From NCBI RefSeq assembly GCF_003334385.1, contig NZ_QOWN01000023.1: a stretch of 64,000 nucleotides of DNA; one strand, given 5' to 3'. The stretch comes from Escherichia coli (GTDB lineage: Bacteria > Pseudomonadota > Gammaproteobacteria > Enterobacterales > Enterobacteriaceae). This document shows positions 51,793-64,000 of this stretch, piece after piece. The notes beneath the pieces are model-generated. The model saw nothing but the letters and a program-made list of their open reading frames with translations. It did no database searches and had not been told where the DNA came from. The position numbers and the translations under genes are program-made. Numbering within the stretch: position 1 is the stretch's first letter; each line of letters begins with the position of its first letter.

Positions 51793-53805
51793 TTACAACA
51801 CCTCGCGAACCGAGATCCCCAGCCGCTGCATTCGTGACAGCAGCGTGGTGCGCTTCATCCCTAATCGCGTCGCTGCGCCACGGGGCCCGGCAACAATGCC
51901 ATTGGTTTCTCGCAATACCTGAACAATGCGCTGACGTTCTTCTTCGTCATTCTCTGGCGTCGTCGGGTGCAGTAACTGCGCCATTGAACTGCGAAGCGCT
52001 GAATCTTCATTTAGCGTCGGCAGTAAACGGCTTTGTCGGACATTTAGATGTAAATTCAGACTGTTACCACGAGTCAACAGTACCGCCCGCTCAATCACGT
52101 TTTCCAGCTCGCGCACGTTGCCCGGCCAATCCCACGACATCAACTGGCGTAGTGCCTCGGTCGGGATGGCGTCAATTGCGCGATTCATATGGCGCGCCAT
52201 TTTTTGCGTGAAATGTTTTGCTAAAAGAGGGATATCTTCCGGACGGTCGCGTAGCGGCGGCAATTCCAGTGGGAAGACATTCAGGCGATAAAAGAGATCG
52301 CTGCGAAACTGGCGATCTTCAACCATTTGCCACAAATCACGGTTGGTGGCGGCAATGACTCTGACATTCACCGGGATCGTTCTACTCCCGCCGAGACGCT
52401 CAATCTCCCGCTCCTGCAATACGCGCAGCAGTTTAGGCTGAAGTTCTAACGGCAGATCGCCAATTTCATCGAGAAACAACGTGCCGCCATCGGCAATTTC
52501 AAAACGACCACGATGGGTATTAATCGCACCAGTAAACGCCCCTTTGTCATGACCGAATAACTCACTTTCCAGAAGACTGGCGGGGATGGCAGCGCAGTTG
52601 ATTTTGACCAGCGGCTTGTCGCGTCGCGGGCTAAGTTGATGGATCGCTCTGGCGATCACCTCTTTGCCAGTTCCGGTTTCACCACAAATCAACACCGTAC
52701 TGTCGCTCTTCGCCACAATATCTACCTGCTGGAGCAGGTCTTCCATTGCCTGGCTTTGATAGATAATGTCACCGATGCCCAGATTCGAAAGGAGCTGCTC
52801 GCTAAGCTGGTGGTTTTCTTGCTGCAAACTTTCCTGCAAATCGGTCATGCTACGCCAGGCATCGGCATTGCCAACGGCAATAGCGATGCGATCGGCTATG
52901 TGTTGTAGTAGCTGGCAGTTTTCCTCACTAAAGAGAGTGGAAGAGGTATGCGCCAGCAACAATGCACCCGGTGTATGGTTGCCAAAGGTAAGCGGTATAA
53001 GGAGCGCAGATTCGCAGCCGTTAGATGCAAGTAAGAGTAATAACGGGTCGCGTTGCCAGAGAAACAGATCATCTGCACGGTGCGTCAAGGTCGGTTGTCG
53101 GGTTTGTAGCGTTTGTGTCAGCAATACACTTTCGCCAGGCATACAGCGTGGCAGACACGCACAATGTGAGGCAGAAAGATCGCTGCACCACAGGCTGAAC
53201 TTCTCGTTCTTTCGATGATCGCCCAGTACCATACTGACTGAAGCCAGACCGAAAAAATGATGGATCTCACGAGCGACGTCAGCGATCAGATCGTCGAGAT
53301 CAAGATGTGACAGCACTGCATTAGTAATATCAACCAGTACCCGATGATGATCGCGATCTTTCTCCAGCAAACGCAGCGCCACCTGCTGTTCTTCATCATT
53401 GAGCCATGATTGCAGAACCGGGGTGATTATCCGCGCCAGCCAGTTAAACAGTGTGCAATCCTGGGAAGTAAAACGACTGCCGTGGGTGCGAATAAAGCGT
53501 AGCTCCGCCATTCCACTACTGCCGAGAAGGACGGCGTGACGCGAATAATCGACCATCTCGCCCTGATACTCTGTTGTTGCCGTCACATCGCTGCCATCAT
53601 CATGGTAGCGGTAATAGAAGTTGCTTTTGAGAACATGCAGTTCAATAAGTTGTACCGGGCTGAACGGCGGCGGCAGCGGGATGAAGGCGCGTAATAAAGA
53701 CGCCTTGCCGTGTTTCTGTGCTAACCGCTCCGCGAGCATTCCGTTTACCGCTTCAATTGTTATTCCTTGTGGCGGGGCAAACATCGCCTCGTCTGACATA
53801 GCCAT
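51793..53805 (-). CDS. hyfR: Sigma-54-dependent transcriptional activator HyfR (FhlA-like)
   Basis: ORF 51793..53808; start at second ATG for 670 aa; Walker A GETGTGKE; sigma-54 interaction motif GAFTGA; C-terminal HTH. Confidence 0.93.
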
Positions 53806-53834
53806 CAACAGTCCTTATTAATGAGAAATCCTTC

Positions 53835-54248
53835 TCACGCAATTTTTCTGGCCATCAGATAGATGGCCGGTTCCTGCACAATTTCATCCAACAGATGAAT
53901 GAATTGAATGCTACGCGCCTGCCACACAGACGTCGCGTCATCCGCCAGTGGCGCGAATGCCCGGGTCAACAGGGCGGTGTGGCTGGCGTCAATAACAATC
54001 TCACCAAAAGTCATCACCCCCAGCATCTTACGTCGGGCTTGCTCCTCTTCGACCAGTGCAAGCCAATCTTCGTATTCCGTCAGTGGGCAGCGGAAGGCGA
54101 CATTCAGACAATCAATCACGCCAACGTGATGGCCGATAGCTAGCGAGTAATACATTACCTGAGAGCTGTGTTCCGGCATCTCGTCGCTACTGGCGACAAA
54201 CTTTTTTCGCAGCGTCCAGAAAACAATTTCCCCGCACTCTTCAGTCAT
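53835..54248 (-). CDS. hyfJ: Hydrogenase-4 component HyfJ (HycH-like)
   Basis: ORF 53835..54311; start at ATG 54248 ([11 protein letters not shown]) for 137 aa. Confidence 0.85.
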
Positions 54249-61868: not shown

Positions 61869-63887
61869 TTAGACGGCAATAGCGATTAGCAGCACAACCA
61901 GTGCGGCGACCACATACAGGCAATAGAGACGAAAGTCGCCGCTTTGCAGATGCTGTATTTCTTTGGCCAGCCGTTGGGTGGCGCTCACGATGGGGCGGAT
62001 CACCCGCTCATCCCAGAAGGGTTCTGTGCTCTGAGCCCTGGCGGTGACGTGCGCAAGACCTTTATTTAGCCTCAGCGTAGGGTCGAGCTGTTGTCGTAGA
62101 CGAAATAGCGCAGAAAAGACCACACGCAGCGGCTGCATCACGCCATTGCCTGACGGGGCCATCGCATTTTCCCAGCCGTAGCCGCATGCCCAGGCATCTC
62201 CTGTGCGACGAAACGCTGCGCGGCGCGAACGACACCACAGCCAGTAAAGGCCAGGCAGCAAAGGCATCGCCAGTAGTAACAGCAACAGTAATGAGGGGGT
62301 GACCTGTGTATGAAACGTGCCGGGTACAAGTGCTATTCCGCTGGCGACAGTGGCGGGAGGGGTATTGGTAAACGCATGGGCAATATGCATTATCTTCGGT
62401 GCCAGCCAACTGGCACTAAGCGCAATTAATACGCAGAGTGCCGCGAGCAGTAGCATGGCGACGATCATCGTATTTGGCACTTCCTGTGCCTCTTCAGCGT
62501 GTGTACTGCGCGGCGCACCACAGAAAGTAATACCGTACATTTTTACGAAGCACATTACTGCCAGCCCACCAGTGACTGCCAGCATTACCATAGCAATAGG
62601 ACCCGCAAGTTGTAGCGCTACGGCTTCCACACGACTTAGTGAGAACAGCGACTGCCAGGTGTACCATTCGCTGATAAAACCATTCAGCGGAGGAATGGCT
62701 GATATCGCGAGGCAACCAATCAGGCATGCTGCGGCTGTCCACGGCATCCGTTTCGCTAGTGCCCCCATTTTTTCCATGTCGTGGGTATGCAAACGCGAAA
62801 TAATCGCTCCCGCGCCGAGAAATAGCAGCCCTTTGAACAGCGCATGGTTGAGCAGATGAAACAGTGCGCCGAGCAGTCCAACCACGGTGAGCAGCGGGTC
62901 GTGCAGTGACAGACCGACCATCGCCACACCGACTGCCAGCAAAATAATGCCGACGTTTTCGACGGTACTCCAGGCCAGCAGCCGTTTGATATCCTGTTCC
63001 GCCAGCGCATATAGCACGCCCAGGAGCGCGGAGATTGCGCCGATCGCCATCACCAGAATGCCCCACCACAGAGGCAAACCCGTTTGCGCCAGCAGATCCA
63101 TCGCTACTTTCAGGATGCCGAAAATACCTATTTTGACCATTACGCCAGACATCAACGCCGAAGCGTGCGATGGTGCGGCAGGGTGAGCGCGCGGCAACCA
63201 GCTGTGCAACGGCATCATCCCGGCTTTCGCGCCAAAACCGAAAAAGGCCAGCAGGAACACCGCCGACGCCAGCCCCGGAGAAAGTGAAAGCGTGCGGAAA
63301 CTGGCAAAATCGAGGCTGCCGCTTTCGCGCCCCATCAGCAAGAAGGCGATCATTATCAGCACCGATCCGGCGTGGGCGATAAAAAAGTAGAGCATGCCAG
63401 CGTTGATCGACGTTTTATCCTGCCTGGCAATGACCAGAAACCAGGAAGACAGCGACATCATTTCAAACAGCACGATGAACCAAAAAGCGTTGTCCATCAC
63501 CAGCAGGGCAACCATCGATGCGATGAAAATATTCATAAAGAAGCCCATCGCCGCCGCGCCTTTGCCCTCGTATTCGCGCATATAAGTCAATGAATAGAGA
63601 GAACAAACCACCACCAGCAAGGAGATAACCAGCACCATAAATGCCGAGAGGCTATCCATTCGCAGGGTTAAATCGGCAAATTCAAAAGGGGTGGCAAAAC
63701 GGGCGACTAAAGTTACACCAGCATGTAATTGCGTAATTCCGCTGATGATGCCAATCACGCCGCCCACCAGCGATGTGATGCCGGAAAGCTTAATAGCCAG
63801 TCTGTCCAGACCGAGTAAAAACAGCGAAGCCAGACTAGCAAACAGATAGAGAATCAGCGACCAGGTTAATAATTGCAGGGCATCCAT
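61869..63887 (-). CDS. hyfB: Hydrogenase-4 membrane subunit HyfB (NuoL/M/N antiporter-like)
   Basis: ORF 61869..63926; start at ATG 63887 (MDALQLLTWSL) for 672 aa; AGGAG RBS upstream. Confidence 0.92.
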   Translation of the reverse strand: MDALQLLTWSLILYLFASLASLFLLGLDRLAIKLSGITSLVGGVIGIISGITQLHAGVTLVARFATPFEFADLTLRMDSLSAFMVLVISLLVVVCSLYSLTYMREYEGKGAAAMGFFMNIFIASMVALLVMDNAFWFIVLFEMMSLSSWFLVIARQDKTSINAGMLYFFIAHAGSVLIMIAFLLMGRESGSLDFASFRTLSLSPGLASAVFLLAFFGFGAKAGMMPLHSWLPRAHPAAPSHASALMSGVMVKIGIFGILKVAMDLLAQTGLPLWWGILVMAIGAISALLGVLYALAEQDIKRLLAWSTVENVGIILLAVGVAMVGLSLHDPLLTVVGLLGALFHLLNHALFKGLLFLGAGAIISRLHTHDMEKMGALAKRMPWTAAACLIGCLAISAIPPLNGFISEWYTWQSLFSLSRVEAVALQLAGPIAMVMLAVTGGLAVMCFVKMYGITFCGAPRSTHAEEAQEVPNTMIVAMLLLAALCVLIALSASWLAPKIMHIAHAFTNTPPATVASGIALVPGTFHTQVTPSLLLLLLLAMPLLPGLYWLWCRSRRAAFRRTGDAWACGYGWENAMAPSGNGVMQPLRVVFSALFRLRQQLDPTLRLNKGLAHVTARAQSTEPFWDERVIRPIVSATQRLAKEIQHLQSGDFRLYCLYVVAALVVLLIAIAV

Positions 63888-63931
63888 TAGCGTTGCTCCT
63901 GAGTGAGGGAAAGGGGATCCTCCCATAAGCG

Positions 63932-64000
63932 CTAACTTAAGGGTTGAACCATCTGAAGAATGCGACGCCTCGGTGCCTCGTTAAGACGATGCCTCGCGTT
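63932..64000 (-). CDS. hyfA: 3' end of hyfA (hydrogenase-4 ferredoxin-type subunit), partial; frame uncertain
   Basis: Two minus-strand frames stay open from the window edge and stop at 63932 or 63937; gene order hyfA-hyfB requires the hyfA terminus here. Confidence 0.4.
   Translation of the reverse strand, partial: NARHRLNEAPRRRILQMVQPLS

Follow-up and report, generated by a model that had tools for sequence, protein, structure and literature searches.

Whether hydrogenase-4 is an energy-conserving formate hydrogenlyase, and whether it is ever active in E. coli, is the textbook question that the hyf operon leaves open. Here, we analyzed a window of 64,000 nucleotides of E. coli DNA, in which positions 50923-63887 of the minus strand carry hyfB-C-D-E-F-G-H-I-J-R and focB, and examined the state of the operon. 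We are confident that these genes make up the hydrogenase-4 (hyf) locus of E. coli, encoding a second formate hydrogenlyase (FHL-2), and that an IS186 copy in the last codons of hyfA splits it, with polarity as the most likely consequence. The hyf system is already known, and the IS186 split is a known kind of disruption. The window adds nothing on the enzyme question because its genes are essentially those of K-12.

Gene content of the hyf locus

The E. coli K-12 operon was reportedly described as hyfABCDEFGHIJR-focB by Andrews et al. in 1997 and Skibinski et al. in 2002. The hyf region of the window aligned to E. coli K-12 MG1655 with 99.98% nucleotide identity over 13.9 kb, and three amino-acid differences were found (HyfB P66T, HyfE A213T, HyfF V260L). 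Gene order, spacing, and the metal-ligand and regulator motifs are those of K-12. All genes listed in the preliminary description were present with matching families, which bears out its identification of the locus. One genome (L001), which matches the window without any difference over positions 51000-64000, carries annotated hyf genes including focB. The features are as follows:

50923-51771, minus strand: focB, formate channel, final operon gene; protein identical to K-12 FocB, annotated focB in L001
51793-53805, minus strand: hyfR, sigma-54 enhancer-binding activator (GAF - AAA+ - HTH); GAFTGA at 422, ESELFGH at 413
53835-54248, minus strand: hyfJ, HycH-like assembly protein; NCBIfam HycH subfamily, 208 bits (cut-off 145), 48% identity to HycH
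54241-54999, minus strand: hyfI, NuoB-like hydrogenase small subunit; NuoB family match, 62% identity to HycG
54996-55541, minus strand: hyfH, 2x[4Fe-4S] ferredoxin-type subunit (NuoI/HycF-like); NCBIfam 'hydrogenase 4 subunit H', 362 bits (cut-off 270)
55551-57218, minus strand: hyfG, [NiFe] large subunit; RVCGIC at 241-246, DPCYSC at 515-520, 70% identity to HycE
57208-58788, minus strand: hyfF, antiporter-like membrane subunit; NCBIfam 'hydrogenase 4 subunit F', 1175 bits (cut-off 951)
58793-59443, minus strand: hyfE, membrane subunit, C-terminal half NuoK-like; NCBIfam 'hydrogenase 4 membrane subunit', 369 bits (cut-off 136)
59455-60894, minus strand: hyfD, antiporter-like membrane subunit, nearest NuoL and MrpA; NCBIfam 'hydrogenase 4 subunit D', 811 bits (cut-off 430)
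60911-61858, minus strand: hyfC, NuoH/HycD-like membrane subunit; NuoH-family matches, 52% identity to HycD
61869-63887, minus strand: intact allele of hyfB, HycC-like and antiporter-like membrane subunit; 977 bits with NCBIfam 'hydrogenase 4 subunit B' (cut-off 667)
63887-63924, minus strand: hyfA 3' remnant (last 37 nt), containing the hyfB Shine-Dalgarno AGGAG and one copy of a 12-bp target duplication
63925-64000, minus strand: right end of IS186 (IS4 family; PGAP name IS421), element positions 1262-1337; 100% identity over 76 nt to the L001 element

The preliminary description had placed the operon at 51793-64000. The genes from hyfB to hyfR do lie in this range, but it ends in the 76 nt of IS186, preceded by just 37 nt of hyfA, and focB, the last gene, falls just outside it. 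The tight packing it reported was seen again, with intergenic gaps from hyfB to hyfR of 10, 16, 11, 4, -11, 9, -4, -8, and 29 nt. None of the 11 reading frames from hyfB to focB contains an internal stop. Disruption of the HyfG ligands had been named as a sign of a pseudogene, and these ligands are intact; open frames (11/11) and intact ligands together rule out pseudogenised hyf genes in the window.

Enzyme features and related systems

HyfB, HyfD, HyfE, HyfF, and HyfH each exceed the curated NCBIfam cut-off of their own model. The three subunits earlier described as NuoL/M/N-type, HyfB, HyfD, and HyfF, also keep channel residues of complex I. When aligned with NuoL, NuoM, and NuoN of E. coli, these were E142, K221, K252, and E407 in HyfB, E143, K220, K251, and K395 in HyfD, and E143, K232, and E406 in HyfF, where the TM8 Lys position is Asn. 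All three alike have the Glu of TM5, the Lys of TM7, and the Lys/Glu of TM12. Since all three keep channel residues, ion translocation by HyfB, HyfD, and HyfF is plausible. Mrp subunit A and NuoL are solved relatives of HyfD, and HyfE matches Pfam Oxidored_q2 at 127-216.

The RxCGxC and DPCxxC motifs of HyfG, recorded in the preliminary description, place the enzyme with the membrane-bound [NiFe]-hydrogenases that belong to group 4 and are of the formate hydrogenlyase type. The closest solved relative of HyfG is chain E of 7Z0S, formate hydrogenlyase subunit 5. HyfG ends in a C-terminal extension of 32 residues after ...DPCYSCTDR, a predicted cleavable assembly peptide whose length matches a published one (PMC7654741). 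The NuoB-, NuoI-, and NuoH-like subunits of this group are HyfI (cysteines 41, 44, 47, 111, and 141), HyfH (two CxxCxxCxxxCP motifs, at 40 and 75), and HyfC. Besides HyfB, the extra membrane subunits specific to hydrogenase-4 (HyfD, HyfE, HyfF) are present, giving all four. The assignments made earlier to HyfC, HyfE, the small subunit, the ferredoxin, and HyfJ hold as well. HyfR, also correctly recognized, has the sensor GAF (169-311), Sigma54_activat (347-513; the AAA+ domain with GAFTGA), and C-terminal HTH_8 (621-661) Pfam domains of a sigma-54 enhancer-binding protein of the FhlA/HyfR branch; by NCBIfam it is FhlA-like, with a score under the FhlA cut-off.

By homology to hydrogenase-3/FHL-1, Pyrococcus MBH, and complex I, electrons would pass from formate dehydrogenase H through ferredoxin-like HyfA and HyfH to NuoB-like HyfI, and on to the [NiFe] site of HyfG, where protons would be reduced to H2. 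The membrane arm under this soluble arm would consist of HyfC (NuoH-like), HyfE (NuoK-like), and the antiporter-like HyfB, HyfD, and HyfF. HyfJ would serve as an assembly factor, and the HyfG tail would need removal by HycI, whose gene lies far away in the hyc locus. HyfR would activate the sigma-54 promoter upstream of hyfA.

The preliminary description had found no maturation endopeptidase gene in the cluster, and the same holds for the whole window: tblastn with HycI over the 64 kb gave chance-level matches only (best E = 0.49), ruling out a hidden HycI-like protease there. The literature on E. coli hyf likewise describes poor expression, as had been noted for K-12, together with no protease gene and HycI cross-activity (PMC7654741, PMC7384014). 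Formate hydrogenlyase-2 activity was found neither in K-12 (PMC7654741, PMC7384014) nor in engineered K-12 strains (PMC7654741). Hydrogenase-4 activity in E. coli is disputed.

The closest known system is K-12 hyf itself, hydrogenase-4 or formate hydrogenlyase-2 (Finney et al. 2019, 2020), which shares genes, order, and spacing with the window; the window differs by the IS186 split, the HyfA tail, and the three substitutions. Hydrogenase-3/FHL-1 (hycBCDEFGHI; cryo-EM 7Z0S, 7Z0T) has in common with hyf the soluble module, the membrane anchor, and regulation by sigma-54 and formate. In addition to the identities listed above for HyfG/HycE, HyfI/HycG, HyfC/HycD, and HyfJ/HycH, we found 45% for HyfH/HycF and 37% for HyfB/HycC. 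Unlike FHL-1, hyf has the extra HyfD, HyfE, and HyfF, its own activator, and a formate channel, and is without a hycI-type protease gene. HycC carries Leu at the aligned TM7 Lys position, whereas HyfB, HyfD, HyfF, NuoL, NuoM, and NuoN have Lys. The active FHL-2 of Pectobacterium atrosepticum (PMC7384014, PMC7654741) has the same subunit set, hyfA-J plus hyfR, but it has in addition a gene for the protease HyfK and a measurable H2 production that depends on Hyd-4, neither of which the E. coli cluster has. Its hyfDEF genes are dispensable for H2 production (PMC7384014).

The IS186 insertion and its recurrence

The window ceases to align with K-12 after position 63924, and the final 76 bases (63925-64000) are the right end of IS186, including its terminal inverted repeat CAACCCTTAAGTTAGCGCTTAT, rather than hyfA. 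In L001 the insert is 1337 bp long, is 100% identical to K-12 IS186A over 1337 bp, ends in inverted repeats over 22 nt, and has its transposase in the orientation of hyf. It is flanked by two copies of the 12-bp target duplication GGGAGGATCCCC, of which the window holds one at 63913-63924. Reference identity including the terminal inverted repeats, together with a short GC-rich target duplication at a G-run/spacer/C-run, identifies the element as IS186. In L001 it interrupts hyfA within the last codons, at 26-37 nt ahead of where hyfB starts, and HyfA is truncated there by 8 C-terminal residues and ends ...GGEDP-HKR-stop, not ...GGEDPLSLTQEQR. The hyfB Shine-Dalgarno and start codon are unaffected.

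The window shows 76 nt of the element; from genomes identical across the query, hyfA and its promoter probably lie past IS186 in the source genome. IS186 would cut hyfB-focB off from both. In one carrier (L006), pdeA, not hyfA, is on the far side of IS186.

The target sequence reads GGGGAGGATCCCC (GGGG-N5-CCCC), and K-12 IS186A occupies GGGGATCACTCCCC. The hyfA 3' site fits GGGG-N3-6-CCCC, the target consensus of IS186, and is the one site of this type in the 64-kb window. In 2001, SaiSree is said to have shown that IS186 recurs at one exact position in either orientation, with a G-run/spacer/C-run target and a 10-12-bp duplication. The hyf insertion resembles this known hot spot in element, target type, and either-orientation recurrence. 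It differs in its target: here IS186 entered a coding gene at its 3' end, at a junction within an operon, whereas the known hot spot is a promoter. The title of the 2001 hot-spot study and its role are as cited in PMC3045373 and PMC11251521.

Among complete E. coli genomes, 52 have the hyfB-side junction in the window orientation and 51 the hyfA-side junction, while 44 carry IS186 at the same site in the opposite orientation, with diverged flanks. Carrier genomes diverge from one another by about 1.3% in their flanks, and they include both hyfB-intact and hyfB-frameshift backgrounds; a single clonal event is ruled out by these backgrounds, both orientations, and the flank divergence. With both orientations at one site and diverged flanks, the hyfA 3' end is therefore a recurrent IS186 hot spot. 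We measured how often this site is occupied in natural isolates and obtained about 1.8% of complete genomes. The searched literature contained neither this occupancy nor any report of IS186 in hyf.

Expression of hyfB-focB and hyf states across E. coli

A -24/-12 promoter had been anticipated upstream of hyfA. Such a sigma-54 promoter, TGGCATCCTTTATGCA, exists in L001, 42-57 nt upstream of the hyfA start and outside the window, and corresponds to sigma-54 ChIP site OS23 (PMC4591121); however, it is 1.34 kb farther from hyfB than in K-12. The genes hyfB-focB, including the activator gene hyfR, would be set back by this distance from the one promoter mapped for them, with a transposase gene that is poorly translated in between. 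Silencing, bypass, or activation of the operon could follow from such an insertion. Most likely it would cause transcriptional polarity, with hyfB-focB expression lowered or uncoupled from hyfA.

A functionally neutral insertion is unlikely, although it retains more weight than the other alternatives. Transcription from the hyfA promoter or the transposase gene would read through the 1.34-kb element, and the enzyme would be made as in K-12, that is, hardly. Transposase and hyf are co-oriented, hyfB keeps its own ribosome-binding site, and the downstream genes of carriers are intact. A consensus scan of IS186, uninformative in either direction, detected no sigma-70-like outward promoter and only weak terminator-like sites in the hyf sense. 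Since no strong hyf-sense intrinsic terminator was found, read-through is possible. Against neutrality, long and poorly translated inserts are typically polar in E. coli, and HyfA loses its 8 C-terminal residues. Moreover, opposite-orientation copies gain no transposase read-through, yet they are about equally frequent. From this near-equal frequency, selection would seem to act on expression in neither direction.

IS elements activate the cryptic bgl operon. By analogy, IS186 could bring or unmask sigma-70 transcription into hyfB-focB, including hyfR, bypassing the weak sigma-54 promoter, and its recurrence would reflect selection. We consider this very improbable. Independent hits on a single site, in either orientation and on diverged backgrounds, agree with it, as do the intact downstream genes of K-12-like carriers. 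However, IS186 target specificity alone accounts for the recurrence: the site is of the GGGG-N3-6-CCCC type, like that of K-12 IS186A, and is the only one in the window. The scan gave no sigma-70-like outward promoter, and many carriers are also hyfB-frameshifted, which counts against selection for function. In K-12, Hyd-4 activity did not appear when the hyf promoter was swapped for that of hyc (PMC7654741).

Finally, a contiguous operon with hyfA and the sigma-54 promoter directly past the window edge, driving hyfB-focB, as the preliminary description wrongly supposed, is the arrangement of K-12 and of the large majority of hyf-carrying genomes (4290 near-full matches vs about 96 with the IS), but it has almost no chance of being correct here and is refuted by the last 76 bases, which do not align to K-12 hyfA and are 100% IS186 end, its terminal repeat and target duplication being as expected.

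Polarity remains the preferred reading for the window, whose hyfB lacks a further lesion seen elsewhere. An identical one-base deletion (C591) frameshifts hyfB in 1264 genomes, about 23% of complete genomes; its recurrence in so many genomes, with no long homopolymer, rules out sequencing error. A near-complete hyfB-focB match is missing from about 21% of complete genomes. Together with the IS186 splits, these states are consistent with weak or absent selection on the operon in E. coli. Against the preferred reading, the K-12-like carriers L001, L003, and L007 have no secondary damage in hyfB-focB, so nothing indicates that selection relaxed once IS186 had inserted. It would be a speculative step, and an improbable one, to conclude from the repeatedly hit hot spot, the hyfB frameshift, and the missing hyfB-focB matches that E. 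coli may be losing hydrogenase-4 population-wide or, more boldly, that IS insertions were selected for rewiring hyfB-focB and hyfR off the weak sigma-54 promoter.

Natural isolates occur in four hyf states: intact, IS186-split, hyfB-frameshifted, and without a near-complete hyfB-focB match. Searches for Hyd-4 activity in natural isolates should determine the hyf state of the strain first. The operon is already cryptic in K-12, and the genes in the window are themselves undegraded.

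Gene content of the hyf locus

Near-full-length matches to positions 51000-64000 were found by megablast in 4,290 of 5,426 complete E. coli genomes, with annotation as hyfB-hyfR and focB. When the reverse strand of the window was aligned to hyf of E. coli K-12 MG1655, only 3 mismatches were found over 13,925 aligned bases, leading to the substitutions P66T in HyfB, A213T in HyfE and V260L in HyfF. None of the genes hyfB-hyfR and focB has an internal stop. The RefSeq gene boundaries were carried over from the corresponding locus of genome AR_0149 (L001), which is identical to the window over 51000-64000.

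Genes of the hyf locus in the window
61869-63887, minus strand, hyfB
60911-61858, minus strand, hyfC
59455-60894, minus strand, hyfD
58793-59443, minus strand, hyfE
57208-58788, minus strand, hyfF
55551-57218, minus strand, hyfG
54996-55541, minus strand, hyfH
54241-54999, minus strand, hyfI
53835-54248, minus strand, hyfJ
51793-53805, minus strand, hyfR
50923-51771, minus strand, focB

The preliminary description of a tightly packed hydrogenase-4 operon with its own sigma-54 activator stands in both observation and interpretation, since the evidence on subunits, spacing, protease and literature agrees with it claim by claim. The intergenic gaps from hyfB to focB are 10, 16, 11, 4, -11, 9, -4, -8, 29 and 21 nt. 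HyfB, HyfD and HyfF, described as antiporter-like, each score far over their own NCBIfam cut-off and also match the NuoL/M/N and Mrp A/D families. All three keep the residues lining complex I antiporter-like channels (TM5 Glu, TM7 Lys, TM12 Lys/Glu), whereas HycC of FHL-1 (the K-12 hyc locus) has Leu at the conserved TM7 Lys position in the MAFFT alignment with NuoL/M/N. In the same alignment, HyfF has Asn in place of the TM8 Lys.

The membrane subunit HyfC is NuoH-like (52% identity to HycD), and HyfE has its own NCBIfam model, with a NuoK-like C-terminal half (Pfam Oxidored_q2). The [NiFe] large subunit HyfG is 70% identical to HycE, carries RVCGIC at 241 and has a tail of 32 residues after DPCYSC at 515. 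We also checked for broken HyfG ligands, a sign of a pseudogenised enzyme, and found the ligands intact. HyfI is a NuoB-like small subunit, HyfH contains the CxxCxxCxxxCP motif of a 2x[4Fe-4S] ferredoxin twice, and HyfJ is HycH-like. In the sigma-54 activator HyfR, GAFTGA lies at 422 and the domains run GAF, sigma-54 AAA+, HTH_8. Hyd-4 has no solved structure of its own; those nearest to it are of FHL-1 (7Z0S/7Z0T), Pyrococcus MBH (6CFW), Mrp antiporters and NuoL, and HyfG has its closest solved relative in formate hydrogenlyase subunit 5 of 7Z0S.

A K-12 HycI query had no match in the whole 64-kb window (best E = 0.49), in line with the described lack of a maturation protease gene; E. coli hyf is known to have none, and HycI is expected to serve (PMC7654741). 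The described poor expression also agrees with the literature, as low native expression has held back study (PMC7384014). FHL-2 activity was undetectable in K-12, even with the hyf promoter swapped (PMC7654741). All the sequence-level defining features of Hyd-4/FHL-2 that we tested were present, and the locus is a member of this known E. coli system.

IS186 insertion upstream of hyfB

The alignment to K-12 ends at window position 63924. The 76 bases that follow, up to the window end (63925-64000), do not come from hyfA; they match positions 1262-1337 of the IS186 element found in L001 with 100% identity. There, the complete element (16926-18262) is 1337 bp long and 100% identical to K-12 IS186A; its terminal inverted repeats measure 22 nt, and the duplication is of 12 bp, GGGAGGATCCCC. 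The element lies within the final codons of hyfA, 26-37 nt 5' of the hyfB ATG, with the transposase in the same orientation as hyf. The insertion changes the HyfA C-terminus from ...GGEDPLSLTQEQR to ...GGEDP-HKR-stop and leaves both the Shine-Dalgarno sequence and the start codon of hyfB unaltered. The disruption is by a known element at a site fitting its known target type.

Mechanical ORFs for hyfB (61869-63926, 685 aa) and hyfG (55551-57263, 570 aa) start upstream of the annotated starts. The extended hyfB ORF is a by-product of the insertion and not a true N-terminus, because its ATG (63924-63926) straddles the IS186/target junction.

The sigma-54 promoter suggested upstream of hyfA was located in L001 as TGGCATCCTTTATGCA, 42-57 nt 5' of the hyfA start; sigma-54 ChIP site OS23 has this sequence (PMC4591121). 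Judged from L001, IS186 stands between this promoter and hyfB-focB in this genome. The structural gene set is complete and intact, except for the truncated hyfA outside the window, and the activator gene hyfR is also intact. By homology, electrons would pass from FdhF through HyfA, HyfH and HyfI to the [NiFe] site of HyfG, where protons would be reduced to H2, and the extended membrane arm may couple H2 formation to the translocation of ions. HycI would mature HyfG in trans, and HyfR would switch on the hyfA promoter.

In this allele, the 1.34-kb element probably has a polar effect on hyfB-focB, hyfR among them; if so, it would quiet further an operon already regarded as cryptic. A consensus scan of IS186 revealed neither a convincing terminator in the hyf sense nor an outward sigma-70 promoter, and two rivals therefore have to be weighed against polarity. 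Transcription could read through the element with no effect on hyfB-focB, which we consider unlikely. Activation of hyfB-focB driven by the element is more improbable still.

Recurrence of the insertion and hyf allele states

In the window orientation, 52 complete E. coli genomes have the IS/hyfB junction and 51 have the hyfA/IS junction. In 51 of these 52 carriers the whole element is followed by hyfA' and bcp, an arrangement also expected here beyond position 64000. A synthetic junction query for the reverse orientation at this site recovered 44 further genomes. Both orientations occur among carriers with K-12-like flanks (L001, L003, L007) and among those with flanks diverged by ~1.3% (L004, L005, L006, L008). 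Given these counts, orientations and diverged flanks, the hyfA 3' end is a recurrent IS186 hot spot and the insertion is no one-off. The junction counts differ because in L006 (OkiPb01676, 3264-6600) the far side of the hyfB-adjoining IS186 is pdeA, without hyfA, which indicates a later IS-mediated rearrangement.

The hyfA target is GGGG-AGGAT-CCCC, and that of K-12 IS186A is GGGG-ATCACT-CCCC; we take this GGGG/spacer/CCCC form to be the consensus reported for IS186 at its lon promoter hot spot. No further GGGG-N3-6-CCCC site was found elsewhere in the 64-kb window. Since the hyfA site matches the IS186A-type target and is the only such site there, target preference is a sufficient explanation for the recurrence. 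No mention of IS186 linked with hyfA, or with hyf in this sense, was found in the literature searched.

In the diverged carriers L004, L005, L006 and L008, hyfB lacks the same single base (C591), which gives a stop at codon 224. Of 5,426 complete E. coli genomes, 1,264 were hit by a 45-nt probe able to seed only on the deleted allele, and 3,023 by a probe for the intact allele. Together these make 4,287, near the figure of 4,290 for near-complete hyfB-focB matches; ~1,136 genomes have no such match. The window carries the intact allele, with the equivalent of nt 591 at ~63297. Several genomes with the hyfB deletion are also annotated with a hyfD frameshift. The hyf finding itself is already known, and the IS186 hot spot and the damaged hyf alleles in the population are modest, checkable side observations.

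Remainder of the window

Outside the hyf locus the window follows K-12 2,615.8-2,665.7 kb colinearly at 99.97% identity. The sole structural difference, and the only length difference within the first 50 kb, is one additional 91-nt unit in a REP/BIME-like tandem array in the iscR-trmJ spacer (3031-3397; 4.0 copies vs 3 in K-12). The sseA-sseB spacer contains two direct ~195-nt copies (11834-12027 and 12156-12352, 82% alike), which correspond to the timR/ryfA-timP small RNA and toxin region of K-12.
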